Shown: in pieces, positions 9,916 to 37,487 of the stretch
How the letters are laid out: every line of letters begins with the position of its first letter
How positions within the stretch are numbered: position 1 is the first letter of the stretch
Source: Candidatus Iainarchaeum sp.
GTDB taxonomy: Archaea > Iainarchaeota > Iainarchaeia > Iainarchaeales > JAZDEL01
Length of the DNA stretch: 37,487 nt
Assembly (NCBI GenBank): GCA_043820655.1
Contig: JBDRDO010000092.1
Span: 1-37,487, forward strand
Direction: 5' to 3'
Position numbers and translations under genes: made by a program
Notes under the pieces: generated by a model
Database searches by the model: none
What the model saw: only the letters and a program-made list of their open reading frames with translations
What the model was told of the DNA's origin: nothing

Positions 9916-9925
9916 TTTTTATATT
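9916..9925 (+). promoter_or_regulatory. TATA-box-like element TTTTTATATT upstream of the pilin-like gene array
   Basis: It lies 31-40 nt upstream of the ATG at 9956 in an AT-rich divergent spacer. A second TATATATAA lies at 9934..9942. Confidence 0.4.
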
Positions 9926-9955
9926 ACAACTGCTATATATAACACAGTGAGTACC

Positions 9956-10435: not shown

Positions 10436-10444
10436 TAATTGCAT

Positions 10445-10876: not shown

Positions 10877-10880
10877 TGGC

Positions 10881-16073: not shown

Positions 16074-16074
16074 A

Positions 16075-17190
16075 TTGAACCATAATGGTGTGCTTTTTGC
16101 GTTCATGGCATTTCTGCTTGTGATGGTTGTGCTGAGCCTTGGCACAACAATAAGGGAGCAGAGAATGGAGCTTGAGGACAGCATAACATCAACCTCCGCG
16201 ATTGTGGGGGTTAGCGGCAAGTTCAACAACATAATTAATGATGTTGTTGCGTTTGACAAGAACAACTTTGTGAAGGATATACAGAAGCGCATCCTGCCGT
16301 TCAACTACTCCATTGACTATGACTTGATAAGGGTGCATCAGGAACTGCCTGTGAAAAGCGCGTATATAAGTAATTACTTTGATGTGATTAATATATACTC
16401 TATTTTCGTGGAGGATGAAAATCCCGAAACAACATATGACCTGATGGTTGTCGACACAAACACGCTCATTAACACAGACTGGCCGCCTCAGGGAAAACCG
16501 CCCCCGTCACAGCCCGATAATCCTCAGTTCATGATCTGGCCGCAGTGCCTGAAGCTTGTTATTGAGGCTGATGAAATAGGCGGCGTAATCCAGGATTCCA
16601 CATACTGGCGTTTCGAGCCGGGTCTTCCCCCCGACCCTAATAAACCCACTGAGGGCTGTGCATCCGCCTTTGACTCAGGCAGTGTTGACAGGTATGATGT
16701 CAACATGTCGTTAATGCAATATAAGGAGTACTACAACACTATTGAGTGTGAGTTCTTCGGCTGTCAGGCACCATGCGCCTGCCCCACTGCCGCATACGGC
16801 TACGGCACAGGCCTGCCCTACTTCAAGCTGACGATTGATGATTCGCGGTGCCAGCCAAATTGCAAGCTTGGCGGGCAGGCAACATTAGTAAGCAGCCACT
16901 ACGATCCGACAAAAGAAAACAGTGTGACAATATCCTGCGAAGCAGACCTCCTGACTCCGAATTGCTATGCAACCACGCCGATTACAATTGTGTTTGGCAA
17001 CGACACTGCCTATAATCCAAACAAGAACGATGTGTTCAGGATCGGCAACTCGGGCGGCACGGTTGACGTGGATATGAACGTGACCTTTGCCAGCCCCGTG
17101 GACCAGTTGCGCTCCATGGATTTCAATGTAAGGGTACACCGTGCGGACTTCAATATAACAATAAAGAATGTTGACGACCCGCCCGCTTAA
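16075..17190 (+). CDS. hypothetical pilus-associated protein with an N-terminal hydrophobic, pilin-like segment
   Basis: An in-frame TTG at 16075, 2 nt after the upstream stop, gives (M)NHNG|VLFAFMAFLLVMVVLSLG. The ORF-track start at 15955 lies inside the previous gene. The mature part is Cys-rich (ECEFFGCQAPCACP, CQPNC). Confidence 0.6.
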   Translation: MNHNGVLFAFMAFLLVMVVLSLGTTIREQRMELEDSITSTSAIVGVSGKFNNIINDVVAFDKNNFVKDIQKRILPFNYSIDYDLIRVHQELPVKSAYISNYFDVINIYSIFVEDENPETTYDLMVVDTNTLINTDWPPQGKPPPSQPDNPQFMIWPQCLKLVIEADEIGGVIQDSTYWRFEPGLPPDPNKPTEGCASAFDSGSVDRYDVNMSLMQYKEYYNTIECEFFGCQAPCACPTAAYGYGTGLPYFKLTIDDSRCQPNCKLGGQATLVSSHYDPTKENSVTISCEADLLTPNCYATTPITIVFGNDTAYNPNKNDVFRIGNSGGTVDVDMNVTFASPVDQLRSMDFNVRVHRADFNITIKNVDDPPA

Positions 17191-19590: not shown

Positions 19591-21094
19591 CAAACTGCTT
19601 AAGGAATACGAGCTTGAGTCCGAGGGCGTGAACCTGAAGATAAGCATTGTTCATGTGGAGGGCGAGTTTGTACGGAGTTACTTAGTGGATATTCCCGAAT
19701 TCGGGCCCGGCACAGAGGCCCTGCTGAAAAACCTGAAAAGCACGCTTGTGACCGACACATCAATAAAAACCGAGAAGATGCTTGATTCGCGCTTCATAGG
19801 TTCTCTGAAAACCGCGTTCAAGGCACGCGCGGGGAAAATACTTGAAAAGGAACTGCCGAATGTTGACGAGCGCACAAAGGAACTGCTTATTGGAATGCTC
19901 CTGCATGAAATGCTGGGCCTTGGCAGGATGGAATTCCTGCTTGCGGACGGCAACCTTGAAGAAGTAGTTGTGAATTCCTCAACAGAGCCTGCATGGGTAT
20001 ACCACAAGGAATTCGGCTGGCTGCGCACTAATGTCATTATAAGCAATGAAAGCGAAATACAGAATTTTGCAAGCATAATCGCAAGGCGCGTTGGCAAGCA
20101 GATAACTGTCCTGCACCCGCTCCTAGATGCCCACCTTATCTCAGGGGACCGTGCAAACGCCACATTATTCCCGATTTCAGGCCGCGGCAACACGCTTACA
20201 ATAAGGCGCTTCAGGCGCGAGCCATGGACTGTTGTTGATTTCATAACCAATAACACCGCAACCCCCGAGCTTATGGCATTGCTCTGGACTGCAATACAGT
20301 ATGAGCTTAATGTTATTGTAAGCGGAGGCACTGCCTCGGGAAAAACATCTTTCCTGAATGTGCTGATGCCCTTTATACAGCCCAATCACAGGATTGTAAG
20401 TATTGAGGACACCCGCGAGCTTTCCCTGCCCAAATTCCTGCACTGGGTGCCGATGACTACCAGGGAGCCCAATCCCGAGGGGCAGGGAGGGGTAAGCATG
20501 CTTGATTTGCTTATTAACTCGCTCAGGATGCGCCCTGACAGGATAATTGTCGGGGAGATAAGGCGGCAGAAAGAAGCCGAGGTAATGTTTGAGGCAATGC
20601 ACACAGGCCACAGCACCTACACAACTGTGCACGCAAACACAGCGGATGAAACAATAAGGCGTCTGATAAACCCGCCTATTGAAATTCCCGCAACCATGCT
20701 TGAGGCAACGCACATAAATGTTGTTATGTTCAGGAACAGGCGCCTCGGGTTAAGGAGGATTTTGCAGCTTGCGGAATTCATTCCCGAAAGGCGTTCGGAA
20801 TCCGAGGAAGTAATTAAGGCAAATGTTCTCTATCGTTGGAAGCCTGCAAGTGACCTTATTGAAAAGCACGCCGACAGCATCAGGCTTTTTGATGAGCTTT
20901 CCATGCACACAGGCATGACAATGAGCGAGATTTCACAGGACATGAAAAGCAAGAAGGGAATACTTGAGTGGCTTGTAAAGCACAAAATACGCGGCGTTAA
21001 CGATGTCGGGCTTATTATGGCAAAATATTATAGTGACAAGGAAGATATTCTGAAATTGGTTAAGCAGGACAAGAAACCGGATTTCGTGAGATAA
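19583..21094 (+). CDS. type IV pilus/archaellum-family secretion ATPase (FlaI/TadA/VirB11 superfamily)
   Basis: The ATG at 19583 overlaps the upstream stop (ATGTCTGA). Walker A is GGTASGKT (20324..20347), Walker B is PDRIIVGEIR, and the His box is TGHSTYTTVHAN. Confidence 0.93.
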   Translation: MSDKLLKEYELESEGVNLKISIVHVEGEFVRSYLVDIPEFGPGTEALLKNLKSTLVTDTSIKTEKMLDSRFIGSLKTAFKARAGKILEKELPNVDERTKELLIGMLLHEMLGLGRMEFLLADGNLEEVVVNSSTEPAWVYHKEFGWLRTNVIISNESEIQNFASIIARRVGKQITVLHPLLDAHLISGDRANATLFPISGRGNTLTIRRFRREPWTVVDFITNNTATPELMALLWTAIQYELNVIVSGGTASGKTSFLNVLMPFIQPNHRIVSIEDTRELSLPKFLHWVPMTTREPNPEGQGGVSMLDLLINSLRMRPDRIIVGEIRRQKEAEVMFEAMHTGHSTYTTVHANTADETIRRLINPPIEIPATMLEATHINVVMFRNRRLGLRRILQLAEFIPERRSESEEVIKANVLYRWKPASDLIEKHADSIRLFDELSMHTGMTMSEISQDMKSKKGILEWLVKHKIRGVNDVGLIMAKYYSDKEDILKLVKQDKKPDFVR

Positions 21095-21984
21095 TGGAGA
21101 AGCTGTCCATACCATTCAGCCCGTTTCCAGTGCCATTGCTGCTGATAGTGTCGGCACACCTTAAAGGCGTAGGGGAATCGATTTCAAGGGCATTTCCCTA
21201 CATTAAAATAGAGCTTAATCAGGCGGAAATCCCGATAAGCGCAAACGAATACGGCGCAATAATGGGATTTCTCTCGTTTTTTTATTTTGTTTTTGTTACA
21301 GCCTCTGTTTATTTCATAGGCTCGGTTTTCTTCCCCGAGAATGCGCTCATTGCCGCCCCGACAATCGGCGGGCTTTTCGCAATAATGATACTTGCGCAGT
21401 TGAGCGTATTCCCCAAAATAAAGGTGAAACGCAAGGTGCGCGACATTGAACGCAACCTAATTTTCGGTCTCAGGACCCTGCTTGTTGAGATAAAATCCGG
21501 CGTAACCCTTTTTGATGCAATAAACGTTGTAGCAGACGGCCACTACGGCGCGGTAAGCACGGAGTTTAGCAGGGCAATAGAAAGCATCAATACCGGCACA
21601 ACCGAAGAAGTCGCGCTTGAGGAAATAGCATCCCGCAACCCCTCATTGTTTTTCAGGCGCGCAATGTGGCAGCTCCTCAACGGCATAAAAACCGGCGGGG
21701 ACATAAGCGTTGCAATAACCGCAATGGTTGACTCCCTTGCAAAGGAGCAGAGGAACCAGGTGCGTAAATACGGCTCCTCACTGAGGATGCTGTCCCTTGT
21801 TTATATGATGCTTGGCGTAATAATTCCCGCACTTGGGCTGACATTCCTTGTAATCCTCGGCTCTTTCCCGCAACTTGATATCAGTGAATTAATGTTTTGG
21901 GGCCTGCTCATATTTCTTGTACTCGGGCAGTTTATGTTCCTCGGAATGTTAAAAGCAGGGAGGCCTAACCTTGTTGGGGACTAA
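21094..21984 (+). CDS. pilus platform membrane protein, single T2SS-F domain (TadB/EpdJ-like)
   Basis: The start overlaps the ATPase stop by 1 nt. It is polytopic, with a cytoplasmic helical bundle (LRTLLVEIKSGVTLFDAINVVADG...AMWQLLNGIKTGGDIS) typical of GspF/PilC/FlaJ-type domains. Confidence 0.85.
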   Translation: MEKLSIPFSPFPVPLLLIVSAHLKGVGESISRAFPYIKIELNQAEIPISANEYGAIMGFLSFFYFVFVTASVYFIGSVFFPENALIAAPTIGGLFAIMILAQLSVFPKIKVKRKVRDIERNLIFGLRTLLVEIKSGVTLFDAINVVADGHYGAVSTEFSRAIESINTGTTEEVALEEIASRNPSLFFRRAMWQLLNGIKTGGDISVAITAMVDSLAKEQRNQVRKYGSSLRMLSLVYMMLGVIIPALGLTFLVILGSFPQLDISELMFWGLLIFLVLGQFMFLGMLKAGRPNLVGD

Positions 21985-22978
21985 TTTTTACAGGAAGGTC
22001 GCCTCGTTAATGCCCTCCAAGATAATCCGTGCATTCAAAACAGAGATGGGCTATCTGGGGATAGATATAAGTGAAAGGCGCTTTGTGGGGTTTCTTCTTG
22101 TTTTCGGGCTTGCGCTGAGCGTGGGAATTTCGCTTAACACATACCTCTTTTTCGGCATAAGCTTTATTGTTGCCTTCCCGTTTTTCTTTGTGCTTTTTGT
22201 TGCCGGCACATACCTCTGGCTGAGCATTGCCGCGGAATCAAAGGGCAAGTTTGTTGAGACAATACTTCCCGATGCGCTGCAGCTGATTGCCTCAAACATA
22301 AAGGCTGGCTTAACAACTGAGCGTGCATTGCTTGTTTCCGCAAGGTCTGAATTCGGGCCTTTGGAAATAGAACTGCGCGCAACTGGCAGCAGGATAATGG
22401 CGGGCATGCCTCTTGAACAGGCGCTTTCATACATCCCGACAAAAATAAAATCCAAAACATTGGAGAGGCTTATCTGGCTGATTTCAAAGGGAATTGAAAG
22501 CGGCGGGCAGATTGCGGATTTATTGACGCACCTTGCCGATGATTTAAGGGAGCAGAACAGCATAAAGGACGAAATCGCGGCAAACATTTCCATGTATATT
22601 ATGCTGATATTTTTCTCCGCGGCAATCGGCGCGCCCATGCTGTTCGGAATAAGCAGTTTCATTGTGCAGATTCTTGTGGTTCAGACCTCGCAGATACCGC
22701 AGTTTGATGCATCTATGTTTGAGGGCACCGGGGGCGGCGCCGGCCTTGCCGGGCTTGCGGGAGGTGGTTCGGTAATTTCCGCGGACTTTGTTATATTCTT
22801 CGCAATGGTGAGCATAGTTGTCACATCTATATTTGCCTCGCTCACAATAGGGGTTATAAACACAGGCAAGGAAAAGGGCGGCGCGAAATTCATACCCGTG
22901 CTCCTATCCATCTCATTTGTGCTGTTTTTCGTTATAAGGGAAGTCCTTGCAATGATGTTCGGCAGTTTGCTGATGTAA
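21971..22978 (+). CDS. pilus platform membrane protein, single T2SS-F domain (TadC/EpdK-like)
   Basis: ILPDALQLIASNIKAGLTTERALL...LIWLISKGIESGGQIADLL plus TM segments. The start is either TTG 21971 (14-nt overlap) or ATG 22010. Confidence 0.85.
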   Translation: MLGTNFYRKVASLMPSKIIRAFKTEMGYLGIDISERRFVGFLLVFGLALSVGISLNTYLFFGISFIVAFPFFFVLFVAGTYLWLSIAAESKGKFVETILPDALQLIASNIKAGLTTERALLVSARSEFGPLEIELRATGSRIMAGMPLEQALSYIPTKIKSKTLERLIWLISKGIESGGQIADLLTHLADDLREQNSIKDEIAANISMYIMLIFFSAAIGAPMLFGISSFIVQILVVQTSQIPQFDASMFEGTGGGAGLAGLAGGGSVISADFVIFFAMVSIVVTSIFASLTIGVINTGKEKGGAKFIPVLLSISFVLFFVIREVLAMMFGSLLM

Positions 22979-23127: not shown

Positions 23128-23589
23128 TTATGTTGCTGGTGCTGTTCCTTTACAGCTGGCTGACGATTCCTTAGCGAAGCCGTCTGCATCCGTGTATCCG
23201 AATGTGAAGTTGACAGTGTATGCCCCTCCTGCCACAAATGTGTGGTTGGGTGCGACGGTCAGTACGAAATCAGCCTGCACTTCGTCGTTCGCTGGAATGC
23301 TAGAGTATGACTTTGTTTCGGTGAGGTCGCCTGTTGCAGTTATTAGAACTGTTGTCAGGTTCTCGCCTGTCATGTTAGTGAAGATTATTGAGAATATATC
23401 ACCGGTAGCCGTGCCACTAAGGTTCTGCTTCTTAATCGGCAGCTTTGACGCACCTGTGCATCCCTCCGCGCCAATCTGCGTCGGATTAATCAGGAACACC
23501 AGTGCAGCAATCGCAATAACAATCACGATCAAAGCCCAGCCGTAGGTCATCAAATACTCCAGCGCTGATTGTCCTTTATTGCCAAACAT
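23128..23589 (-). CDS. major pilin candidate with class III signal peptide
   Basis: MFGNKG|QSALEYLMTYGWALIVIVIAIAALVFL is a textbook archaeal prepilin N-terminus. It has a GGAGGG RBS, its own TATA box and an oligo-T terminator. There are five N-x-S/T sequons. Confidence 0.9.
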   Translation of the reverse strand: MFGNKGQSALEYLMTYGWALIVIVIAIAALVFLINPTQIGAEGCTGASKLPIKKQNLSGTATGDIFSIIFTNMTGENLTTVLITATGDLTETKSYSSIPANDEVQADFVLTVAPNHTFVAGGAYTVNFTFGYTDADGFAKESSASCKGTAPAT

Positions 23590-25212: not shown

Positions 25213-25932
25213 ATGGCTAAAAATAAACTGTGGGGATGGGTGCGGAAAACAATTGCCGCGGGCACGGCTGCATTTGTGCTAGGGCACCCCGGAAAAATAG
25301 CAATGGAATATCCGCATGGATATGAGTTTCGCCCGGGGATAAGGCGTGAGGGCATGGTTCAGGCCGCGAAGGAGATTGAGTTCAGGAACGCACTCCTTAA
25401 CAGCGGAAAGGGCGAATGGTCTGAAAAATACCGCGCGCTTCTTGAGCCGCACGGTCCGCTGAATCGCACAGGCCTGCCTGAGAGGCTTCTTCGCTGTGAG
25501 GCGTTTCGCATCTGGCTCGGCGGCGAAAAGGGCGAGGTTACGGATTACTTTGATGCGCAGGAGCTTTACAATATGCATATGGAGCTTAAGGGCGGGAATC
25601 CAAAATTCATCGGCAAAAATGTGCCGATTGCGGAACAGTATGAGGCAGTCCGCCCCGGGCGCTACAGGAATTGCCTGAACGCCGCGGCGCGCAATTTCAG
25701 GAAATGGGGTCTGCCGATAAGTGAGGCGGAACTCCTGAAGAAACGCCCGTCACCTGCCCCTGCTCAGGGCACTGTGCCGGCACTTAAGCCAAGCCAAACG
25801 CCGCTTATGAAGGGCACGCCCGCAGCCCCTGATAAAATCAAGGTTAAGCCGAGGCGCAAAAAGAAATACAGGAAGAGCTACATCCGCCCCCCTAAGATAG
25901 ACCGTTCAGCTTTGCCCAAAAGGCGCGCATAA
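25213..25932 (+). CDS. hypothetical N-terminally anchored protein with basic Pro/Lys-rich tail
   Basis: 239 aa: MAKNKLWGWVRKTIAAGTAAFVLG..., with tail ...KVKPRRKKKYRKSYIRPPK. The promoter motif AATTAAATAG lies 31-40 nt upstream. Confidence 0.55.
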   Translation: MAKNKLWGWVRKTIAAGTAAFVLGHPGKIAMEYPHGYEFRPGIRREGMVQAAKEIEFRNALLNSGKGEWSEKYRALLEPHGPLNRTGLPERLLRCEAFRIWLGGEKGEVTDYFDAQELYNMHMELKGGNPKFIGKNVPIAEQYEAVRPGRYRNCLNAAARNFRKWGLPISEAELLKKRPSPAPAQGTVPALKPSQTPLMKGTPAAPDKIKVKPRRKKKYRKSYIRPPKIDRSALPKRRA

Positions 25933-26012
25933 TGCGCAGGGAACACGCTGGCTGAAACAAAAGGGGCAATCGCATTGCGGAATGCCCTGTGGCAAAGAAG
26001 GCGTGGCGTAAG

Positions 26013-26022
26013 TATTAAATAG
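26013..26022 (+). promoter_or_regulatory. TATA-box-like element TATTAAATAG
   Basis: It lies 30-39 nt upstream of the ATG at 26052. Confidence 0.5.
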
Positions 26023-26051
26023 GCGCACGCCCTTTCATATACGGGGCTTAT

Positions 26052-26519
26052 ATGGCTTTGGGAAAAGGCACTGTGAAAAAAGCGTTTGCCATCGGAACCG
26101 TCGGCGGAATGTTGTTTTGGTCCGCATTATTTGGCAACAAGGTCCTCGAGCAGCGCAGGTTTGTCTCGGGGGAGGCGGGGAATCGTGTTTCTGTTAAATA
26201 CAGTGAACGGCTCCCCTCGGACTGGCGGGCTACTGAGTATGCGAAATACTGCCGCAAGATTGTGAGGGCTCATTCCGCCACCTATAAGGATGCGCTTAAC
26301 GTTGCCGCTTACCGGACACAGCTGGAGCGGGCGCAGACTCTGCAGAAACCACTGGGTGCCAAAGAGTTGTTCAAACAGTCCGTGAAAATGCTTGAGGATG
26401 CGGGGATTGTACCCTCAAAGGACGGCAAGTCCGCAATTATCCTTGAGAAAAATGATTACAATTACATGATTCTGCAGAATAAGGGCAATGCCCCTGGGAA
26501 AAAGCAGGTCTCCAAATAG
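26052..26519 (+). CDS. hypothetical N-terminally anchored small protein (paralog family)
   Basis: 155 aa: MALGKGTVKKAFAIGTVGGMLFWSALFG. It aligns by eye with the next gene (KYSERLPSDW / KYGLPHQTNW; SATYKDAL / GAAYKDLL; LEDAGIVPSK / LEKAGFKPPK). Confidence 0.55.
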   Translation: MALGKGTVKKAFAIGTVGGMLFWSALFGNKVLEQRRFVSGEAGNRVSVKYSERLPSDWRATEYAKYCRKIVRAHSATYKDALNVAAYRTQLERAQTLQKPLGAKELFKQSVKMLEDAGIVPSKDGKSAIILEKNDYNYMILQNKGNAPGKKQVSK

Positions 26520-26535
26520 CCCCGCCGCGGCTTCG

Positions 26536-26563
26536 CGCTGAACCTAACTTAAACCTTTCGCGC
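26536..26563 (+). repeat. 28-bp direct repeat, copy 1
   Basis: CGCTGAACCTAACTTAAACCTTTCGCGC, identical to 27210..27237. It lies 17 nt after the stop of 26052..26519. Confidence 0.85.
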
Positions 26564-26584
26564 ATTTCCCAGCGCTAGCGGAAG

Positions 26585-26594
26585 CATTAAATAG
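26585..26594 (+). promoter_or_regulatory. TATA-box-like element CATTAAATAG
   Basis: It lies 32-41 nt upstream of the ATG at 26626. Confidence 0.5.
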
Positions 26595-26625
26595 TTGGGG
26601 TGCGTTTTATTTTGAGGTGATAGCA

Positions 26626-27087
26626 ATGGGCAAAATCGCAAAAACCACCAAAAAGATTGTTAAGGCAACAGGGGGTGCCTTGCGTACAACCGGGAGAGGC
26701 TTACGTGAAGTAAGTTTTGTAAAAGTTGGTACGATAGTTTCGGGCGCTGCATGTATTGCTACTACGATATATCTCGGCGGGCTGGCTTATAAGGCGAACA
26801 AAATCATATCGCCCAAAGTAGTGAAGCCCACGATTGCCAAATACGGGCTCCCGCATCAAACCAATTGGAACAGCGTGGTAAGGTTATACAAAAGCGCGGT
26901 TAGCAAGGGGGCTGCCTATAAGGACCTTCTTGTTCTGGAAACAAACAGGGTGCTGCTGACTAAGTGGACTAAGAAGCCAGCTGATGCGATCGCCGCCCCT
27001 CTGATGGCTAAAGAGGCGATTAAGGAGGCGGCAGCCAATTTGGAAAAAGCAGGGTTCAAGCCGCCGAAAGCAAAGGGCGGGAAGTAG
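26626..27087 (+). CDS. hypothetical membrane-anchored small protein (paralog family)
   Basis: ATG at 26626 (MGKIAKTTKKIVKATGG...VGTIVSGAACIATTIYLGGLAY). It is a paralog of 26052..26519. CATTAAATAG lies ~32-41 nt upstream. Confidence 0.55.
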   Translation: MGKIAKTTKKIVKATGGALRTTGRGLREVSFVKVGTIVSGAACIATTIYLGGLAYKANKIISPKVVKPTIAKYGLPHQTNWNSVVRLYKSAVSKGAAYKDLLVLETNRVLLTKWTKKPADAIAAPLMAKEAIKEAAANLEKAGFKPPKAKGGK

Positions 27088-28729: not shown

Positions 28730-30793
28730 ATGAACTCCAGCTCGGTTCGGCTATTGCTTTTAGCGGCGCTTATCGCCTTCACAGGCTTGGCTTTGGCAGG
28801 CGCGGCATATGCCGATACCTGCGGCATTGCATGCTCAACTGACGCGGCATGCAACGACGGGGATGCGGCAACATGGGACATCTGCTTCCGCCCGGGGGCA
28901 TGCGACAGCGGATGTGCAAACTTAAATTGCGTGCCGGCATGCAAAACAAATGCCGACTGTGCGGATAATGATTCCTTGACAACAGATGTATGTGCGGGCG
29001 CCCAGCGCTGTGAGGCAAAGTGCTATAATTTAATCTCCTGCGGAAACGGAATTTGTGACAACAGCCTCAATGAAACATCCTGCACATGCATGCAGGACTG
29101 CCAAACCTGCGCAGAGGAACTTTCAGGCACATGCACGGAAAAGGCGTGCATAGGGGGCCAGTGCGGCACAACAATAATGCTCGGCTGCTGCGGCAATGGC
29201 AGGTGCGAACTCGGGGAAAGCTACCTCTCCTGCAGTGTTGACTGCAGTGCGGAAACAATAACCCTTGAATATGCCGGCGAGGAAAGGGAAAAGTACCTGC
29301 GCGGAGAAACTCTGGAACTCGTGATTTCCGTTGAGGCGGACGGCGCCGCAGCAAAGGGCGCAAGCGTTATCGCAAACGGCTTTTTCGGAGAACTGCGCCT
29401 CTACAATGACGGCAGCCACAATGATGGAACATCAAAGGACAACATATATGGCAATTCAATTCTGCTTACAAAGGACGATGTGCCCGGAGAATACGTGGTC
29501 AAGTTCTATGCGGAGTTTGGCGGCGCCGAGGGCGAACTGAGCAAAACATTCGTGTTCAGGCCGGAACTTGACGTTACGCTTAACACTGATGCGGAAAAGT
29601 ATTTCCTTGGCGACATTATAAAAATAAGCGGCACGGTAAGCAGGGGCGGCAGCGGCGCCTACCTACCGGTTGAACTTGCGTTGTCCGTGCGCGGAAGGGT
29701 TGTTTGGGAGGAAGATGTTGGAAGCGGTGAAACAGGGGACTTCAGTGCGGAATACCACTCCACACTCCTAGATCCAATAGGGGAATGGGAACTTTCAATG
29801 CATACTGAAGATGCCAACGGCAACACCGGCAATCTTACGCATGAATTCGCGGTCATTGGCCCTGATAACGCGTCTCCGATACAGATAGAGGTCCTGTCAG
29901 GCATTGAACAAAATTATTCGCGCGGCGAAACCCTTGACCTCAATATCGGGCTTTCAGGGGAGGGTGGAGAAAAATTAAGCGCCGCAATTGCAAACATTGT
30001 TCTGCCCAACGGGAAGTCACTAAAAATGCGCGAGGTTGAGCAGGGAGTTTACTCTGTAAATGTCCCTTTTGGCTGGGACTTTCCAGTGGGGAAAAGCATG
30101 CTTGAGGCAAGGGCTGTAAAGGCGGACGGGGAAAACACCTACAGCGGTGCAATGCAGTTTGAGGTTCGCGTAACAAATGCAAAGCTCACAGTTGATTTGC
30201 TTGCCCCCGAGGTGCAGAGATATGAAGTTGGGGAGGCTGTTGAATTCCGCGCAAAGCTGTCATACCCCGACGGAACGCCTGTGCCAAATGCGCAGATACA
30301 TGCTGAACTGAACGGAAAACAAGTGGCAATGCCCGGAGTTGAACAGGGAATTTACAGCGGCACATATGTTTTGGCTGCGGAAGACGAGGGAATTGCATCA
30401 TTTGTCATTAATGCGGATGACGGCTTCGGCAATATTGCCGCGCGCGATCTGCAAATAGAGGTTTCGGGAATTTCCCCCCTGCACTACCTGCGCGAGTATG
30501 TTGTTTACATAATTGTCGCCCTGCTTACCCTGATTATTGCGGGCACAACTTTTGCGCATTTCAGGGTAAGGTCAAGGCGCCTTTCCGAACTTAAGGCAGG
30601 GGAGGCCAGGGTCATAAGGCAGATAAAGGCGCTGCAGAAGCAGTTCTTCAAGAACGCGACAATAGACAAGGTTAATTATGACTCCTTCCTTGATAAGTAC
30701 AAGTCCGAGCTTGCAGACATACGGAAATCAATAGAGCGTGCGGGCGGAACTCCAGTCGCGGAGATTGAAAAGGAGGGCAAAAGGAATGGCTAG
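28730..30793 (+). CDS. single-pass surface protein: signal peptide, Cys-rich region, Ig-like repeats, TM, helical cytoplasmic tail
   Basis: The signal peptide is MNSSSVRLLLLAALIAFTGLALAGAAYA. About 150 aa are Cys-rich, with two CGNGxC...C..DC units. Repeats of ~90-100 aa end in G(I/V)YS-type strands. The TM segment is YVVYIIVALLTLIIAGTTF, and the tail begins RVRSRRLSELKAGEARVIRQIKALQKQFFKN. Confidence 0.8.
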   Translation: MNSSSVRLLLLAALIAFTGLALAGAAYADTCGIACSTDAACNDGDAATWDICFRPGACDSGCANLNCVPACKTNADCADNDSLTTDVCAGAQRCEAKCYNLISCGNGICDNSLNETSCTCMQDCQTCAEELSGTCTEKACIGGQCGTTIMLGCCGNGRCELGESYLSCSVDCSAETITLEYAGEEREKYLRGETLELVISVEADGAAAKGASVIANGFFGELRLYNDGSHNDGTSKDNIYGNSILLTKDDVPGEYVVKFYAEFGGAEGELSKTFVFRPELDVTLNTDAEKYFLGDIIKISGTVSRGGSGAYLPVELALSVRGRVVWEEDVGSGETGDFSAEYHSTLLDPIGEWELSMHTEDANGNTGNLTHEFAVIGPDNASPIQIEVLSGIEQNYSRGETLDLNIGLSGEGGEKLSAAIANIVLPNGKSLKMREVEQGVYSVNVPFGWDFPVGKSMLEARAVKADGENTYSGAMQFEVRVTNAKLTVDLLAPEVQRYEVGEAVEFRAKLSYPDGTPVPNAQIHAELNGKQVAMPGVEQGIYSGTYVLAAEDEGIASFVINADDGFGNIAARDLQIEVSGISPLHYLREYVVYIIVALLTLIIAGTTFAHFRVRSRRLSELKAGEARVIRQIKALQKQFFKNATIDKVNYDSFLDKYKSELADIRKSIERAGGTPVAEIEKEGKRNG

Positions 30794-32018
30794 GCATTAT
30801 TTGTTCCTGTCGGCAATTGCGCTGGTGTTTATTTCCTGCGCATTGCACGCCTCGGCATTAAGCATTTCCGCTGACAAGGCAGATTACAACAAGGGCGAGG
30901 CAATTAACATTGAGGGCATCTGTGCCCCGGGAAAAAACACGCTTAGCATTGCGCATCACGGCAGAATTGTTTTCGGGCGGGAAATAAACTGCGAAACAGC
31001 AAGCCTGTTCAGGGAGCGGTATGAGATAGGCTTCCTTGATCCCGCGGGAAGGTGGAACATAGCGATTGAAAATGGCGGGGAGAGCAGCGAGACAAGCGCC
31101 CTTATCTGGCAGATTCCCGAATCGGCATATTTTGTTGTAAAGTTCCTCAGCCCGCCGCCGGGAACGTACTATAGGACGGATGGCCTGCCCGTAACTGTCA
31201 GGATTACGGATGCCGGCGTGCCTGTTACTGACGCAAACGCGGCATTATGGGCTGCCGGCGGCGCACGAATCCAGCTTGAAAATCGCGGCAGCGGGCTTTA
31301 CAGGTATGATTATGAAATACCATATGATGCAATGCCCGGGAAATGGAGGCTTGTTGTAACCGCGGAGCGAAATGCGGATGCAAGGCACGGCGGGGAGGCA
31401 GGCATGGATATAAAAGTGGGAAAGGCGCCGATTTCTATAGATGTTATTGAGCCCGCGGTGCGCACCTTTAGTTTGGGTGCCGAAATACCCCTGAAAGTGA
31501 AGGTAGGGTATGTAAACGGCAAGCCGATTGCGGAAGGCGCCATTAAGCAGGTTGCCGCAGAGATAGGCGGGCGGGCGGTACTGCTCACGCCGCAGGGGAA
31601 AGGGATTTACTCAGGCGTATTGCGCACGCGCGGCGAGGACGAGGGCGTGGTAGGCATAATAATAACCGCCGAGGACCTTGCGGGAAACTTCGGCGACACA
31701 ACTCTTAATATTGTCGCAACAGGCCTCGCCGGCTGGTACTTATCCGAGTATGCAGTTTACATACTTGCCGCAATAATGGTTCTTGCGATTTTTGTAAGGG
31801 TTGTGTATGGCGGGATTTCAAGGAAGGGTAGTTTACGGAAGCTTGAGGAAGAACGCTCAAAAACCGCGGCTTTGATACGCGGTTTGCAAAAGGAATATTT
31901 TGAAAACAGGCGCATGCCTGCCGAAAGCTACAAGAAAAGGATTGCGGAACACAGGGCAAACATAAACATGATAGACGCAAAGGTGCGCGAGATTAAGGAC
32001 AGGGAGGGGCTGAAATGA
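30786..32018 (+). CDS. single-pass surface protein with Ig-like repeats (shorter paralog of 28730..30793)
   Basis: The ATG at 30786 overlaps the upstream stop (ATGGCTAG). The signal peptide is MARHYLFLSAIALVFISCALHASA. The last repeat, the TM segment (YAVYILAAIMVLAIFVRVVY) and the tail (LIRGLQKEYFEN) align with the previous protein. Confidence 0.8.
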   Translation: MARHYLFLSAIALVFISCALHASALSISADKADYNKGEAINIEGICAPGKNTLSIAHHGRIVFGREINCETASLFRERYEIGFLDPAGRWNIAIENGGESSETSALIWQIPESAYFVVKFLSPPPGTYYRTDGLPVTVRITDAGVPVTDANAALWAAGGARIQLENRGSGLYRYDYEIPYDAMPGKWRLVVTAERNADARHGGEAGMDIKVGKAPISIDVIEPAVRTFSLGAEIPLKVKVGYVNGKPIAEGAIKQVAAEIGGRAVLLTPQGKGIYSGVLRTRGEDEGVVGIIITAEDLAGNFGDTTLNIVATGLAGWYLSEYAVYILAAIMVLAIFVRVVYGGISRKGSLRKLEEERSKTAALIRGLQKEYFENRRMPAESYKKRIAEHRANINMIDAKVREIKDREGLK

Positions 32019-33211
32019 GGAAACGTGAAATACTTACGGATGCGGCAAAGCGCCTGCTTGAGGACGGTGTTGCGCCTGAGGATGTTGTTGAAAGCCTTAC
32101 GGATGCGGGAATGCCGCAGGGCGAGGCTGTTGAAATTGTAACGGGGATGCGCGCAGGCGATGATATTCGGGAAAAAGGCGCGCACGGCAGGGATGAAAAT
32201 GAAGCGCGAGAAAAAGAGGGCAAATCCCCGGGCAAGGCGCAGGCACAAACCCGCGGCAGGAAAGGAAAAGGGATTTTAGGAGGGCTGTTTGGCGGGATTA
32301 TCCATCCAAAAGACGAACTTGCGGATATACGGGAGCGCGTTGTAAGCAGTGGCGCAGTGCAGGCTGAGCATCCTGCACAAAAAGAACATGCAGGGATACG
32401 CATCGGCGCGCAGGGCGCGGAGGAGGGGCTTGCACGCCAAAGCCCGTTAAGGGAAAAGGCAAAATTCAGGGAAACAATGCCCTTAAGGGTTAGCGATTTC
32501 GACAAGCTTATTGACAGGGGCGGCCTAAAGCGAGGGGATACAATTATGCTTTCAGGCGGATGCGGAACAGGAAAAACAACATTTGCTATGCAGTCCCTTT
32601 ACAATGCCGCACTCCACGGCGAGCGCGGGGTTTACATAACCCTTGAGGAAAGCGTTGAGAAAATGAAGGAGAACATGCTCCAGAATTTCGGCTGGGACCT
32701 TTACAGGCTTGAGGAGGAGGGCAAGCTTGCAATAATAAAGCAGGATCCCTTAAGTGTTGCGCGCTCTGTTGAGGCAATGATGGAGGAGGAGCGCGGCGGG
32801 CTTTATATAGATTCGGAGGATGTAAAGCTCCCGTTCAGGCTTAACCTGCCTTTCCGCCCCGATAGAGTTGTTGTTGATTCCCTGTCAGCGCTTGGCATAG
32901 CATTTATGGAGAACGAGCAGGCATACAGGCAGTATCTCCGCTATTTGTTTGAGACGCTTGAGAAGTACAATTCAGTGAATATTGTTTTGGGGGAAACCGA
33001 GCAGGAACCCTCCGCATATAGCAGAAGCGGAATAGAGGAGTTTCTTGCCGACGGGGTAATAGTTTTCTACAACCTGCGCATACACAATATACGGGAAAAG
33101 GCGCTTGAAATTTTAAAACTGCGTTCCTCAAACCATGACAAGAGGATTATCCCGTATAAGATAACAGAACACGGAATAAGGGTTTACACAGATCAGGAAT
33201 TATTCAGATGA
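32015..33211 (+). CDS. KaiC-like (RecA-superfamily) ATPase with a ~160-aa charged N-terminal extension
   Basis: The start overlaps the upstream stop (ATGA). Walker A is GGCGTGKT (32555..32578), followed by GVYITLEES and the Walker B-like RVVVDSLSAL. Confidence 0.85.
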   Translation: MRKREILTDAAKRLLEDGVAPEDVVESLTDAGMPQGEAVEIVTGMRAGDDIREKGAHGRDENEAREKEGKSPGKAQAQTRGRKGKGILGGLFGGIIHPKDELADIRERVVSSGAVQAEHPAQKEHAGIRIGAQGAEEGLARQSPLREKAKFRETMPLRVSDFDKLIDRGGLKRGDTIMLSGGCGTGKTTFAMQSLYNAALHGERGVYITLEESVEKMKENMLQNFGWDLYRLEEEGKLAIIKQDPLSVARSVEAMMEEERGGLYIDSEDVKLPFRLNLPFRPDRVVVDSLSALGIAFMENEQAYRQYLRYLFETLEKYNSVNIVLGETEQEPSAYSRSGIEEFLADGVIVFYNLRIHNIREKALEILKLRSSNHDKRIIPYKITEHGIRVYTDQELFR

Positions 33212-33871
33212 TTTCTTTCCGCGCTTTTTACCCTCCCCCTTCATGCCGCCAATAATCTCAATTTCGCCTTCATCAATCTTAAGCTCAGGCCTTATTGCCG
33301 GGGTTATTTTCTTTTTCGGGAGCCTATCCTCCTCCGTCTTTTTCTTATCCGTATAGCGCAAATCATACTCCGCCATTGTTATTGTCTCATTCACAAACAT
33401 TCCCAAATCACGGACAGTTTCGCTTTCCTTATCCCCGTCAAGCGCGGTGAGTACGCACTCCGCCCCAAACTCCTTTATCCTCCCTATTAATGAGTGCATG
33501 AATTTTGTTGAAACTCCCGCAGATTCATAAATGAGCAAAGTGGAAATTGAGTCAAACATCAGCGCCTGCGCCCCGTGGCTTTTAATTGCGTCAGTTATCG
33601 CAAGGCTCAGCTCCATTAATGAATTCGGCGAGCTGACAAAAACACAGTTATCATCCGCCTTTTTGCACGCCTTTGTGTTCCTTGTTATTGCATCCACAAT
33701 AAAGAATTTGGAAACAGGGACTTTTTCCTTCTTCATCCCCTTTGTAAGCGCTTCATACCTTTCATTCAGGCTTACATAGCATATCCTGTCATGCACCTCA
33801 CTTAGGCGCTTTGTTATGCGCATTGTGCTTTCCTGATAGCCCTTGTTTGGTATTATGATTAATGTAAGCAT
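33200..33871 (-). CDS. RecA/KaiC-fold protein lacking Walker A (degenerate paralog)
   Basis: MLTLIIIPNKGYQESTMRI...ICYVSLNERY...ALMFDSISTLLIY aligns with the KaiC-like genes, but the P-loop GxxGxGKT is replaced by PNKGYQES. The tail is Lys-rich. Confidence 0.6.
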   Translation of the reverse strand: MLTLIIIPNKGYQESTMRITKRLSEVHDRICYVSLNERYEALTKGMKKEKVPVSKFFIVDAITRNTKACKKADDNCVFVSSPNSLMELSLAITDAIKSHGAQALMFDSISTLLIYESAGVSTKFMHSLIGRIKEFGAECVLTALDGDKESETVRDLGMFVNETITMAEYDLRYTDKKKTEEDRLPKKKITPAIRPELKIDEGEIEIIGGMKGEGKKRGKKSSE

Positions 33872-33998
33872 CCTGCACCCCTCCCTTAATTAGCACTAAA
33901 CAATATCTTCCCAAGTATTATAAAAGCGTTTGCACTCCGCGCCGGCGGTTTGCTAACTTCGGTAATGCTTTTAAACCCCAATACCATTATTATAGCAG

Positions 33999-34760
33999 AT
34001 GCCATCCACAAACTCCATAAAACTGCTTAAGCCCTCAACAACGGTTAAGGGCGGGCGCCTTGTGATTGACCGCACAAAATCGGGAGTGCCGGGTCTTGAT
34101 GAAATGATGGGCGGCGGCCTGCCTAAGGGAAATCTTGTTGTGTTATCGGGAGACCCGGGCTCGGGAAAAACGGTTTTCTGCTGGCAGTTTCTTTATGAAG
34201 GGGCGACAAAATATGACGAGCCGGGGGTTTACGTAAGCCTTGAGGAAACCGAGGAGGCAATAGTAACAGGCGCACTTGAATTCGGCATGGACTTCAGGGA
34301 AATGATCGAAAACAATAAGCTGAAGATAATCACAATTGAGCTTTACGATTTCGAGCGCCTGAAAAGCGCTGTTGAGGACACGATAGCAAGCATAAATGCT
34401 GTAAGGGTTGTGATTGACCCCGGGGTTATTTTCCGCCTGTTTTTTGACCGCGAGCTTGAGGCAAGGAAAAGGATTGTTTCGCTCGGAAAAATGTTAAAGC
34501 GTATTGGCTGCACAACTATCATCACAAGTGAAATCACGCTTGACAACATAAAGGGTCTTTACGGCCTTGAGGAGTATGTTGCAGACGGCGTTATTCTGCT
34601 TTACCACACAAAGCTGAAAAATAAGTTTGTGCGCAGTGTCGGAGTATTAAAAATGCGAAACACAGAAATATCCGAACAGCTTAAGCCATTGAAAATAACC
34701 AATTCAGGAATAAAGGTGCTTTCAAAGGCCGAGCTGTTTGAGGACGTAAAGGCTGATTGA
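33999..34760 (+). CDS. KaiC-like single-domain ATPase
   Basis: GVPGLDEMMGGGLPKGNLVVLSGDPGSGKTVFCWQFLYEG, with Walker A at 34149..34172. It also has GVYVSLEETEE and the Walker B-like VRVVIDPG. Confidence 0.88.
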   Translation: MPSTNSIKLLKPSTTVKGGRLVIDRTKSGVPGLDEMMGGGLPKGNLVVLSGDPGSGKTVFCWQFLYEGATKYDEPGVYVSLEETEEAIVTGALEFGMDFREMIENNKLKIITIELYDFERLKSAVEDTIASINAVRVVIDPGVIFRLFFDRELEARKRIVSLGKMLKRIGCTTIITSEITLDNIKGLYGLEEYVADGVILLYHTKLKNKFVRSVGVLKMRNTEISEQLKPLKITNSGIKVLSKAELFEDVKAD

Positions 34761-34761
34761 T

Positions 34762-35592
34762 ATGGCTGAAAAAAAGCGCGCCAAAAAAGCAAAGCCCCGC
34801 GCCCCCGCGAAACAAAGGGTGAAGCCCGCGGCAAAAATTTCTCTTGCAAAATTCCTGCCCGGAAAAAAACCAATTGCAGAAAGTCCCGCGCCAATGAATA
34901 TAGAAGAAGCCCGCGCACGGCCTGTTGTGAAGCCGGAGATAAAGGAGCTTCCGCGCGAGGAGGAGTTCACTGATGAGCAGTTAAGGCGCATGCTCAGCCC
35001 GGATGCAAAAACCGATTTGCAGATAGAGCGCGGCTTTGAGGGAATGAAGGGCAGCTATTCCGCGCTTGTTATTGTGGAGAATGACGTTTATGCGGATGCA
35101 AGGATGGGCATCCTGAGGAAATTTGTGAATGCCGAGAAAATGCCCGGCGTTTATGTAAGTGTTAACAAGGCGTATGTAAAGGTAAAGGCCGAACTTGAGA
35201 AGGGCGGGATAAGCCCCGAAAAAATGAAGTTTGTCGATCTTGTTACGCGGACTTCCGATTCCGCGCACGCGCTTATTGAGGAGGGCAAGGTAATTTATGT
35301 CGATTCCGCAACAGACCTGACTGAAATTATAATCGCAATTGAGAAGCAGATGGACGCCATAAAGGAAAACAAGAAATTCCTTATCCTTGACTCGCTTTCA
35401 ACCCTGCTTGTTTACAACTCCCCCACAAGCGTTGAGAAGTTCACCCACTCCCTTATAAGCAAAATCGGCCAGCACACCACTCGGGGCGCGCTTATTTTTG
35501 TTTACTCAAAGGACCACGAGGGCGTTATCCAGACAATCAGCCAGTTCTGTGATAAGGTGATCAGGGTTGCCCGTGAGCAGCAGAATTGGTAA
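34762..35592 (+). CDS. RecA/KaiC-fold protein lacking Walker A, with Lys/Ala/Pro-rich N-terminus (degenerate paralog)
   Basis: It starts 1 nt after the KaiC-like stop. ALVIVENDVYADARMG...GVYVSVNKAY...FLILDSLSTLLVY is a paralog of 33200..33871, and no GKT is present. Confidence 0.65.
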   Translation: MAEKKRAKKAKPRAPAKQRVKPAAKISLAKFLPGKKPIAESPAPMNIEEARARPVVKPEIKELPREEEFTDEQLRRMLSPDAKTDLQIERGFEGMKGSYSALVIVENDVYADARMGILRKFVNAEKMPGVYVSVNKAYVKVKAELEKGGISPEKMKFVDLVTRTSDSAHALIEEGKVIYVDSATDLTEIIIAIEKQMDAIKENKKFLILDSLSTLLVYNSPTSVEKFTHSLISKIGQHTTRGALIFVYSKDHEGVIQTISQFCDKVIRVAREQQNW

Positions 35593-36934
35593 CTGCCCCG
35601 TCTTTTTCAGGCTCCTGCATTTTAAGCACAATATTCCCGAAACTTAATTCCTTCAGCAGTTTCTCAGCATCCGCCTTTACTCCGCCAATTTTCCTGCTGG
35701 CTTCGCCCAGCCTTTGCTCCGCGTTTTTGAGGAGTGCGGTGTTTTCCTCAACCTCGTTGCTGATTGCATTAAGCCCGCGCTCAATTCCTGAAATTTCCGC
35801 GCTTATTTTTGAGGATTCTATTTCCCTTTCCGTTGCTGCAATTTCCGCATCAATTTTATTCAGCTTCCAGAACAGCTCCCCGAAAAAGTCATAATCCTTT
35901 AATTCAGCTAGCGCGCGCATCTTTTTCGCACGCTCCTTTTCCTTAAGTGAAATTATCCCGTTTCTTACCATCTGTTCAACATCCGCCAGCAGTTTCTTCA
36001 GTATTTCAGCCTTCGGGTCCTGCTTTGCCGCAAGGAAAGGGTTTGTTAAATATGCATTCAGCAGCGCGCGCTCAGTATCCTCAAGGACATAATTTCCGCT
36101 TTCCGCAAGCCGCATAAACCTGTTCAGTGGCCTGTCAATCGGCGCAATCAGATTTATGAATCTGCCCTTAAGTTCCTGCTTCTCGCGCGCCTGCCCCGCC
36201 TTTTTTTCCATAAGTGAATTGAGTTCCTTAATTCCCGCGGAGTTTTGCAGTTCCGCAAGAACGCTGGCCTTTTTCTTCTCATCTTCCCGCAAAGCCATCA
36301 GGGCAGTATTTATTTTTTTTATTTCCGCGCTTATTTTTTCCCGCTCGGCAATCCCCGTTTTCAATCCCTCAAGCCCTGCCTTTGCAGCCATTGCCCTTCC
36401 CGCGGAATTGCCCTCAAAGAGCGCCTGTAGTTTTGCGAATGTTGAATTAAGCTCATTTATGTAATTTCCAAGATTTTTAACCTCCTGTTTCATTAAAATT
36501 CCGGTGTACATGACATTCCTGCCGAAGGTACGCAGTTCATCCTCCAGGCTTTTGCTTGAGTTTGTGCAGTATGCGCGCAGGATTTCATAATCGTGCTTCT
36601 CGGGAGGGGCAAGCCTTTCAGTGAGCGTTGACATGTTCTTAATCAGATTGCGCTTGCTTGTCTCAACAATCTTCCTAAGCCTTTTGTTTCCTTCCTCCGC
36701 CTCCAAATCACGGGATTCAAACTCCCGCAGTTCTGTTTTAATTTCGGCAAGCGTGTGCTTAATTTCGGCAAAATGCGCAAAAACCTGTTTTTCAAGCTCG
36801 GCAAACCCCGACTTTCCTTTCTCGGAAACCTGTGCGAGAGCCTCATTTATTTCCATTGTCCATGTTTCCTCTGGCGCCTTTCCCGCGCCCCTGCCTTTCC
36901 CGCCCGAGCCGAATATTTTGTCCAGAAAGCCCAT
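35561..36934 (-). CDS. long coiled-coil protein, function unknown
   Basis: ATG at 36934 (MGFLDKIFGSGGKGRGAGK...). The 457 aa are rich in E/K/L/A with heptad-like stretches throughout and no TM segment. The 3' end overlaps the convergent gene by 32 nt. Confidence 0.7.
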   Translation of the reverse strand: MGFLDKIFGSGGKGRGAGKAPEETWTMEINEALAQVSEKGKSGFAELEKQVFAHFAEIKHTLAEIKTELREFESRDLEAEEGNKRLRKIVETSKRNLIKNMSTLTERLAPPEKHDYEILRAYCTNSSKSLEDELRTFGRNVMYTGILMKQEVKNLGNYINELNSTFAKLQALFEGNSAGRAMAAKAGLEGLKTGIAEREKISAEIKKINTALMALREDEKKKASVLAELQNSAGIKELNSLMEKKAGQAREKQELKGRFINLIAPIDRPLNRFMRLAESGNYVLEDTERALLNAYLTNPFLAAKQDPKAEILKKLLADVEQMVRNGIISLKEKERAKKMRALAELKDYDFFGELFWKLNKIDAEIAATEREIESSKISAEISGIERGLNAISNEVEENTALLKNAEQRLGEASRKIGGVKADAEKLLKELSFGNIVLKMQEPEKDGAVTNSAAHGQP

Positions 36935-36984
36935 GATTAAATATTGCGCGAAAGTGGTTAAAAAATGGCGTGGAACAGCGCAAA

Positions 36985-36994
36985 GGTTAAATAG
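36985..36994 (+). promoter_or_regulatory. TATA-box-like element GGTTAAATAG
   Basis: It lies 22-31 nt upstream of the receiver-domain ATG at 37016, so the transcript may be leaderless. Confidence 0.45.
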
Positions 36995-37015
36995 CGGGTT
37001 GCACAACCATTTTCC

Positions 37016-37487
37016 ATGGTGCAGGAAAAAGAACGGGCAAAGACTGTTTTGATTGTGGAGGATGTTGAACAGGATAGGCTGATTCTTTACAACATTCTTG
37101 AGCGGCAGTTTAAGATCCAGGATGTAAAGGACTACAAAATATATGCAGTGGACCGCCCAGATGACGCGCTTGAAATCGCAAAAAATGAAAAGATAGGTCT
37201 CCTAATCACCGACCTTAACTTCAACAGGGCCAAGAGAAGCATGGTTTTTGAAACCTCGATTAAGTATGTGCAGGAGCTTGTGAAGGTTTGTGCCGGGCAC
37301 GGCGCAGGCCTTATTGTCACAAGTGACAAGGGGCTTGATGCCAAAACCGAGGAATTACTCAAAAAAAGCGGGGTGGAGTTCGTTAAGAAGCCGATTTACA
37401 CCGCCGACTTTGTAAAGCGCGTGGTGCAGTCCATAAAGGAGCCTGCATTTAAACCGAACCTTAGCGAAAGCGCCCTTAAGCACCTTA
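37016..37487 (+). CDS. CheY-like response regulator receiver domain protein (3' end runs off the window)
   Basis: Absent from the ORF track because it is open-ended. My translation is MVQEKERAKTVLIVEDVEQDRLILYNIL...IGLLITDLNF...GLIVTSDKG...EFVKKPIY. This shows the acidic pair, phospho-acceptor Asp, Thr/Ser and Lys-Pro in canonical REC order. Confidence 0.75.
   Translation, partial: MVQEKERAKTVLIVEDVEQDRLILYNILERQFKIQDVKDYKIYAVDRPDDALEIAKNEKIGLLITDLNFNRAKRSMVFETSIKYVQELVKVCAGHGAGLIVTSDKGLDAKTEELLKKSGVEFVKKPIYTADFVKRVVQSIKEPAFKPNLSESALKHL

Follow-up and report, generated by a model that had tools for sequence, protein, structure and literature searches.

We have analysed a stretch of 37,487 nucleotides (nt), called the window from here on, of the archaeon Candidatus Iainarchaeum sp. 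(contig JBDRDO010000092.1 of assembly GCA_043820655.1), and particularly the eight genes at its end, labelled A to H in Table 1, which lie downstream of a type IV pilus locus. Two of them code for surface proteins (A and B), two for KaiC-like ATPases (C and E), two for paralogs of these ATPases devoid of the Walker A motif (D and F, the dead KaiCs), one for a helical hairpin protein (G) and the last for a protein with a receiver-like domain (H). H is cut by the window end and its full length, 243 amino acids (aa), has been read from the same genome (GCA_018813965.1). The original prediction, derived from the letters of the DNA, had drawn the same map: all eight genes are present where it had placed them, and every overlap that it reported was confirmed. 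A and B overlap by 8 nt (ATGGCTAG, 30786-30793), B and C by 4 nt (ATGA, 32015-32018), and E and F are separated by a single nucleotide; the convergent pairs C/D and F/G overlap by 12 and 32 nt, respectively. TATA-like boxes (TTTAAA) were seen by eye upstream of A and E, while scans for sigma-70 promoters and terminators were uninformative, as expected of an archaeon. Three pairs of paralogs are contained in the group, namely A and B (24% identity across 398 aa, E 1e-33), C and E (30% across 230 aa, E 7e-25) and D and F (27% across 171 aa, E 6e-15). Homologs and related loci carry the labels Candidatus Iainarchaeum or Diapherotrites (a DPANN phylum).

Table 1. Genes and pilus-related features of the window, with position, strand and predicted product
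Feature	Position	Strand	Length	Description
A	28730-30793	+	687 aa	long surface protein; no Pfam match above threshold
B	30786-32018	+	410 aa	short surface protein, paralog of A
C	32015-33211	+	398 aa	active KaiC-like ATPase; PF06745 2e-50, aa 159-394
D	33200-33871	-	223 aa	Walker-A-less KaiC paralog (DUF7504), short form
E	33999-34760	+	253 aa	core single-domain KaiC-like ATPase; PF06745 1e-58
F	34762-35592	+	276 aa	core Walker-A-less KaiC paralog; DUF7504 1.5e-13
G	35561-36934	-	457 aa	helical hairpin protein
H	37016-37487 (cut by window end)	+		divergent receiver-like domain
Pilin-like genes	9899-17190	+		three small pilins, two vWA giants, 411-aa protein; class III signal peptide
Giant vWA pilin-like proteins	11377-13683, 13680-16073	+		VWA 4e-19, 4e-16
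p751	17335-19590	+	751 aa	Lys/Pro/Ala-rich, 5' of pilus ATPase; A/B tail motif in relatives
Type IV pilus/archaellum-type secretion ATPase	19493-21094	+		T2SSE 1e-34
Two TadC/PilC-like platform proteins (TadC1, TadC2)	21094-21984, 21971-22978	+		T2SSF 5e-16, 2e-17
Pilin (MFGNKGQSALEYLMTYGWAL...)	23128-23589	-		same pilin sits between TadC2 and E in basal relatives

For comparison, we have collected 319 relatives of the dead KaiCs F and D in species-representative archaeal genomes and taken the best 80 loci with their 10-kb flanks; the comparison set comprises about 100 related loci in all (cited by L numbers). Hidden Markov models (HMMs) built from the proteins of the window, L004 and L006 were run on the six-frame open reading frames (ORFs) of all loci. 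In 12 species-level Iainarchaeota genomes the surface proteins are found together with C, D, E, F and G, although the genes have been rearranged. The lack of co-occurrence in relatives that would have spoken against a module was not seen, since the genes form a conserved one.

The most constant part of this module is the triad E-F-G. F comes directly after E (median gap of about 0 nt, n = 39 loci), and G converges on F in 31 of the 36 informative Iainarchaeota loci. When metagenomes were sampled from the side of G, six loci had F/E beside it, with G and a small dead KaiC on one strand in four of the six, and in seven long loci G was alone. The other part, the block A-D, behaves differently. 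Surface proteins with the conserved tail (see below) were found only where a C-type KaiC is present (11 of 11 such loci, none in the approximately 30 loci without C), and they co-occur as well with the D-type dead KaiC (again 11 of 11). The next gene after them always carries the adaptor domain that we call cn, be it C or a long form of D, the order of C and D being inverted in some genomes. In a rough neighbour-joining tree of E, the forms adjacent to pilus genes are basal, and loci that have the block do not separate from those that lack it; this intermixing fits the gain or loss of A-D as a unit.

The four RecA-fold proteins were assigned from profiles and motifs. PF06745 (KaiC; gathering score 26.6 bits) matched C with 171.6 and E with 198.6 bits, and both preserve the catalytic motifs (Walker A GGCGTGKT, acidic pair after strand 2 LEES and hK[LM]R motif LKLRS in C; GDPGSGKT, LEET and LKMRN in E). 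D and F matched DUF7504 (PF24336; cut-off 27 bits) with 34.2 and 52.0 bits, both without P-loop. The profile search and the motifs thus agree with their earlier description as KaiC-like ATPases and Walker-A-less paralogs. The same division holds throughout the comparison set: all 12 C-type and all 45 E-type proteins preserve Walker A and none of the 97 F/D-type proteins has it, and the hK[LM]R motif follows the same pattern, being retained in the C and E types and missing in all 97. Within the set, conservation is highest in E (81% identity with its counterpart in L006), whose nearest solved structures are KaiC (8zn5, 1e-60), PH0186 (2zts, 9e-33) and 2dr3 (1e-32); SSO2452 was also matched at 4e-22. 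Neither ATPase reaches the models of bona fide, double-domain KaiC (NF006799 and TIGR02655, which require more than 408 and 546 bits): C scores 133 and 104, E 160 and 112, and both are single-domain. A role in anti-phage defence was also considered and rejected; the PADLOC search returned only weak matches to mad8 (27.6 and 17.5 bits), which cover no more than the P-loop/N-terminal part of the KaiC domain.

Outside the ATPase fold, these proteins differ in their extensions. C begins with the cn domain (about aa 1-45), followed by a Gly-rich GILGGLFGG motif and a linker, and F has a Lys/Pro-rich N-terminal extension. An HMM of the N-termini of C-type proteins found the cn domain in the long forms of D (5 of 5, E 1e-9 to 2.5e-6) and also in small proteins of about 200 aa (E 5e-8 to 1e-5), designated 'n', that fill the same slot in loci without the A-D block. 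D is short in the window and has relatives of 620-820 aa, with cn domain, coiled coil and SHOCT-like ends. Such long forms (674-804 aa) lie in L022/L023 (1425-4954; L023 is Candidatus Iainarchaeum andersonii SCGC AAA011-E11), L049 (5142-7556), L070 (5434-7458) and L079 (2159-4546). They are built of the cn domain, a Lys/Pro-rich linker with FIPxLxxGG..V.EI, the dead KaiC and an internally repeated coiled coil, and end in two motifs with weak similarity to SHOCT and GvpG (in L049, 20.1 bits and E 5e-4 to SHOCT PF09851, below the cut-off of 27). A different second pair of KaiC and dead KaiC replaces the surface block in L011-L014, its KaiC being called with 243 aa in L014 and with 341-354 aa, including a low-complexity N-terminal extension, in L011-L013; this suggests that the doubled KaiC/dead-KaiC arrangement is a general theme. 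In L004 (GCA_053535995.1, 9059-9781), the ortholog of E is called in two pieces of 66 and 144 aa with some 40 residues missing, which is a frameshift, a pseudogene or an assembly error.

A and B are, as originally described, paralogous single-pass membrane proteins with signal peptide, immunoglobulin (Ig)- or macroglobulin (MG)-like sandwiches, one transmembrane helix and a helical tail. A has a Sec signal peptide, Cys-rich N-terminal modules, Ig/MG-like repeats, the transmembrane helix and a cytoplasmic tail with the motif Q..[YF]F...Y; its orthologs have 50% (L006/L010) and 35% (L004) identity. The AlphaFold model of B (predicted local distance difference test, pLDDT, 82) consists of a signal helix, three beta-sandwiches, the transmembrane helix and a helical hairpin as tail. 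The sandwiches resemble the MG domains of complement and alpha-2-macroglobulin (Foldseek E 1e-13), and bacterial adhesins as well, with TM-scores of at most 0.27, low values that are to be expected since these are generic tandem sandwiches. MG2 (PF01835) was matched by A and B with only 15.8 and 21.1 bits, short of its gathering score of 32.8. No characterised S-layer or protease family was matched by either protein in Pfam, NCBIfam or the fold search; a match of that kind, with no link to the ATPases, is what would have refuted the original prediction by its own terms.

The tail is where these proteins are most alike, as had been supposed. Among the orthologs of B it is the best-conserved segment (mean column identity 0.42 versus 0.29-0.39 in the ectodomain), and its core Q..[YF]F...Y is present in all 25 surface proteins. 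Five of 16 homologs of p751, the protein encoded just before the pilus ATPase, are matched as well by an HMM of the tail (i-E 3e-6 to 2e-4); the motif is degenerate in the p751 of the window. The tails did not match SHOCT (PF09851, cut-off 27 bits) at E<=10, and the tail HMM found nothing at E<10 in the C-termini of the long D forms, where the likeness is visual only. Searches for further members of the family yielded very little: only two homologs of B appeared in a collection of 5.8 billion proteins, a search with the profile of 10 sequences of the B family brought nothing new and a metagenome scan gave no relatives, the family having been assembled from the flanks of dead-KaiC loci.

G had been described as a coiled-coil protein, convergent with its neighbour. 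Its length, its helical nature and its orientation were right, but it is not a generic coiled coil. It represents a distinct family with strongly conserved motifs and a conserved N-terminal amphipathic segment (MGFLDKIFG), the start MGFLDK in the window agreeing with the N-termini of the homologs. In the model (pLDDT 85.7), G folds as a long helical hairpin, antiparallel, and its N- and C-terminal strands pair with each other. Against PDB sequences, PDB folds and Pfam no significant match was obtained, only generic coiled-coil noise. About 20 homologs were found in the 5.8-billion-protein collection, and 179 clusters at 50% identity (E<=1e-30) in an exhaustive search. G alone, without E and F, occurs in L007 and L008/L009 besides the seven long metagenome loci. 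At one point L007-L009 suggested that G was a mere neighbour from the chromosomal backbone; this was overturned by the 80-locus survey. A DHH/DHHA1 (RecJ-like) gene adjoins the stand-alone G in L007 (6089-9374) and L008/L009 (8432-11296), and another follows F directly in L060 (5220-6608), which lacks G. This gene could belong to the local backbone or be linked in its own right.

H had been proposed as a CheY-like receiver and one of two possible outputs of the system; its membership of the module was not supported. It remains below the gathering score of PF00072 (30.2 bits) both as the window fragment (25.5) and as the full 243 aa (24.3), and had no match among PDB sequences at E<=0.1; residues E15-D16, D66, T102 and K124-P125 could be placed by eye on the receiver positions of the acidic pair after strand 1, the phospho-acceptor Asp, the Thr/Ser and the Lys. 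Among the about 100 loci it was found only in the window and L001, that is, in the source genome, and is absent from the closest relative, L006. H adjoins the module and is not a conserved member of it.

The pilus locus was recognised by one T2SSE and two T2SSF matches, a class III signal peptide match and a pilin N-terminus (QSALEYLMTYGWAL). Its ATPase has FlaI as best NCBIfam match, with 268 bits where the cut-off is 550; archaellin, ArlF and ArlG were not identified in the locus. In 20 of the 21 informative loci, the 10 kb upstream of E contain the pilus ATPase or TadC genes (the sole exception, L032, has a pilin gene), and in 10 loci TadC2 ends at most 1.05 kb before E, with nothing or only a pilin gene between them. 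Three arrangements are found. In the basal one (L015, L017, L019, L021, L024-L026, L031, L036 and L037), the order is vWA-pilin, p751, ATPase, TadC1, TadC2, minus-strand pilin, E, F, small dead KaiC and G. In the second (L027, L048, L074 and others), PPAT, CoaE and PGM are inserted, followed by an 'n' protein before E. The third, which is that of the window, has in addition two or three surface proteins, C and D between PGM and E. Dead KaiCs of the F family are also found near pilus genes in Woesearchaeota and Nanoarchaeia (L054, L057 and L072). The link with the pilus that had been suspected from proximity is much stronger than supposed: basal relatives have E-F-G directly after the pilus genes.

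In our best reading, the region forms the distal portion of a superlocus for type IV pili in an archaeon of the Iainarchaeota (Diapherotrites, DPANN). Within it, we consider, with about even confidence, that A-G code for a complex built on KaiC that assists or regulates the pilus machine and includes a lineage-specific transmembrane unit for input or anchoring. The core would be the triad of an active KaiC-like ATPase (E), its catalytically dead paralog (F) and a membrane-peripheral hairpin protein (G), the latter apparently co-transcribed with a further small dead KaiC in basal relatives. E and the dead paralogs may form RecA-type rings, scaffolded under the membrane by G, that would modulate the pilus ATPase/TadC platform, in parallel to the KaiC-like ArlH, which together with ArlX or ArlCDE serves the archaellum motor. 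A sub-lineage that includes the source genome would have added A, B, C and D in one block, and the cn domain shared by C, the long D and the small substitute protein presumably plugs them into the core. That the short motif of the tails of A and B recurs in a protein encoded beside the pilus ATPase makes it probable that these conserved helical tails bind the cytoplasmic assembly. A surface event, such as contact, adhesion or envelope anchoring, might in this way be coupled to pilus activity. More tentatively, A and B could be transmembrane sensors or stator-like anchors whose tails attach to a ring composed of both live and dead KaiC subunits, situated beneath the pilus motor and gating it; on this detailed version we would place only little weight.

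Several observations weigh against this reading. E resembles true KaiC and PH0186 more than ArlH: with the ArlH/FlaH model (NF052589, cut-off 215) E scores 48.3 bits and C 18.9, and no ArlH structure is among the PDB matches of E at E<=1e-5. Nor has G any detectable similarity to ArlX or ArlC/D/E, and it stands alone in about half of the members sampled from its side. The tail HMM matches neither the window's own p751 nor any KaiC protein. In the window, A starts 5.75 kb after TadC2, and the intervening pilin, PPAT, CoaE, PGM and three small ORFs are spread over both strands; since the pilin and the housekeeping genes intervene, co-transcription of A with the pilus operon is excluded there. 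Finally, a single phylum accounts for all the positive loci, and the linkage could thus in part reflect a gene order that was inherited.

The strongest of the alternatives is close to the original prediction: a free-standing device for outside-in signalling, with A and B as receptors, a ring of KaiC and dead KaiC as transducer and G as output, the adjacency to the pilus being no more than inherited order. The block A-D is indeed self-contained and co-inherited, and housekeeping genes part it from the pilus genes in the window and in L004, L010, L029, L062 and L068, which are all the surface-protein-bearing loci that reach upstream of the block. KaiC-like ATPases have moreover been proposed as general signalling hubs of archaea (Makarova et al., 2017, as cited in PMC5847659). 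However, many genomes have E-F-G without any receptor of the A/B type, abutting the pilus genes or with a pilin between, the tail motif recurs in a pilus-locus protein, and the receiver proposed as output is not conserved. G as the output of a receptor unit fares no better, since it is kept with E-F where the receptors are absent. We regard a free-standing device as possible but doubtful; the module appears rather to be one form of the association between KaiC-family ATPases and archaeal type IV pili that has already been noted (PMC4858521).

A second alternative would make A and B ordinary adhesins or envelope proteins that neighbour the KaiC genes by chance, without coupling between tails and ATPases. 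Their ectodomains are the kind of generic tandem Ig/MG-like sandwiches seen in bacterial adhesins and S-layer proteins, and genes for adhesins and S-layer proteins are frequent in archaeal pilus loci (PMC4858521). Yet their co-occurrence with C and D is perfect, their junctions are 4-nt overlaps or short gaps that lead into a gene with the cn domain, and the tail, with its invariant Q..YF...Y core, is the segment that varies least; chance neighbourhood is thus unlikely. The KaiC-like proteins might also be a machine for the assembly, insertion or turnover of A and B, an ATP-driven chaperone or extractor acting on their tails, and not a regulator. RecA-type hexamers often do mechanical work, and A and B are translationally coupled to an active RecA-fold ATPase. 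The KaiC-like GvpD, in addition, controls the level of another protein (cited in PMC4858521). Against this, E-F-G is conserved where the substrates A and B are absent, and no protease, translocon or insertase gene was found in the block by the Pfam and NCBIfam searches, which makes such a machine very unlikely. Least probable is a function in DNA repair, with C-F as RadA paralogs (aRadC-like) and G as an SMC/Rad50-like coiled-coil partner: the match of E to SSO2452, the MukB and Rad50 coiled coils as best fold matches of G and the DHH/RecJ-like gene beside the stand-alone G in L007-L009 would be in its favour, but those fold matches are not significant (Foldseek E of at least 0.016, TM-score of at most 0.3), G has no ATPase head or hinge and carries an N-terminus of amphipathic, membrane type, and the genes are embedded among those for pilin, TadC and membrane proteins and translationally coupled to surface proteins.

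Several known systems come close to the pilus complex that we favour. The general association of KaiC with pili is already known: Makarova, Koonin and Albers (2016, PMC4858521) describe a strong association between ATPases of the KaiC family and the type IV pilus loci of archaea, predict a role as regulators and could identify no partner of the ATPase in most cases. The module appears to be a variant of this association. As in those systems, a single-domain KaiC-like ATPase lies in or beside a locus with secretion ATPase, TadC-like proteins and class III pilins; unlike them, here it comes with a dead paralog that is conserved and with a helical hairpin protein of its own, and one sub-lineage has a second KaiC/dead-KaiC pair and two or three Ig-like single-pass surface proteins. 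The words DPANN and Diapherotrites do not occur in PMC4858521. With the archaellum motor (as established knowledge has it) the locus shares a KaiC-like RecA-fold protein together with a secretion-type ATPase, a platform and a coiled-coil scaffold, but E is not an ortholog of ArlH, G shows no similarity to ArlX or ArlC/D/E and the platform is split into two TadC-like genes. Like the archaeal KaiC hubs (the 2017 work as cited in PMC5847659), the module combines active KaiC-like ATPases with paralogs that are inactivated (iKaiC) and with adaptor or input domains that vary. E has the RecA-like, hexamer-forming fold of cyanobacterial KaiC and of Pyrococcus PH0186 and PH0284, with Walker A/B and the catalytic Glu pair; C and E differ from cyanobacterial KaiC in being single-domain and in having no KaiA or KaiB genes nearby. 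The titles and abstracts of a KaiC literature search contained no such module, and no description of the composition E-F-G plus A-D was found in the literature searched, the 2017 KaiC-hub paper of Makarova, Galperin and Koonin being outside the coverage of both.

To our knowledge, KaiC-like ATPases are the most expanded candidate signalling proteins of archaea, with hardly any partner known. If the more tentative version with A and B as sensors or anchors is true, the module would provide the first concrete wiring from input to output of an archaeal KaiC hub: in a DPANN archaeon, the sensing of surface contact would govern how the pilus extends or how the cell attaches to a host or substrate. 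The locus supplies a defined set of candidate partners (dead paralog, helical scaffold, adaptor domain and membrane proteins with a docking-type tail) that adjoins a defined candidate target, the pilus motor, so that the general KaiC hypothesis could be turned into specific interaction tests. Iainarchaeota are small-genome DPANN archaea, and appendages of the cell surface and attachment are believed to play a central part in them; a regulator of their only visible pilus system would bear on their lifestyle.

Some other features of the window and of the related loci deserve mention. The two giant paralogs among the pilin-like proteins (768 and 797 aa) carry a hydrophobic segment of class III type at the N-terminus and a vWA domain in the interior, and relatives keep their genes at the head of the pilus locus. 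The 3' end of the gene for p751 overlaps the start of the pilus ATPase; the protein has no Pfam or NCBIfam match, its position is conserved across Iainarchaeota and it appears fused with the ATPase in some ORF calls (L019 and L021). Just upstream of the first pilin genes, and divergent from them, is the gene (8867-9817, minus strand) of a protein of 316 aa whose N-terminal half is a coiled coil and whose C-terminal domain is similar to transglutaminase-like/CEP76 peptidase-like domains (PF24656, 1e-7). Between CoaE and PGM there are three small genes (25213-27087; 239, 155 and 156 aa) whose products have an N-terminal hydrophobic segment and Lys-rich ends, match no family and were not seen in other loci. 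In L020, L032 and L073, two paralogous genes of approximately 395 aa (VIVSSWPPRHCGIATYS at the N-terminus) lie between CoaE and E in place of PGM (about 6.7-9.2 kb in L020 and L032, 3.3-5.7 kb in L073); from their sequence, our guess is that they code for glycosyltransferases. At the other end of the window, a ribbon-helix-helix gene lies beside a PIN-domain gene (1020-1924, both near the Pfam threshold) and a second, clear PIN-domain gene is found at 6131-6532; among genes of glycolysis and CoA biosynthesis, they look like toxin-antitoxin genes.

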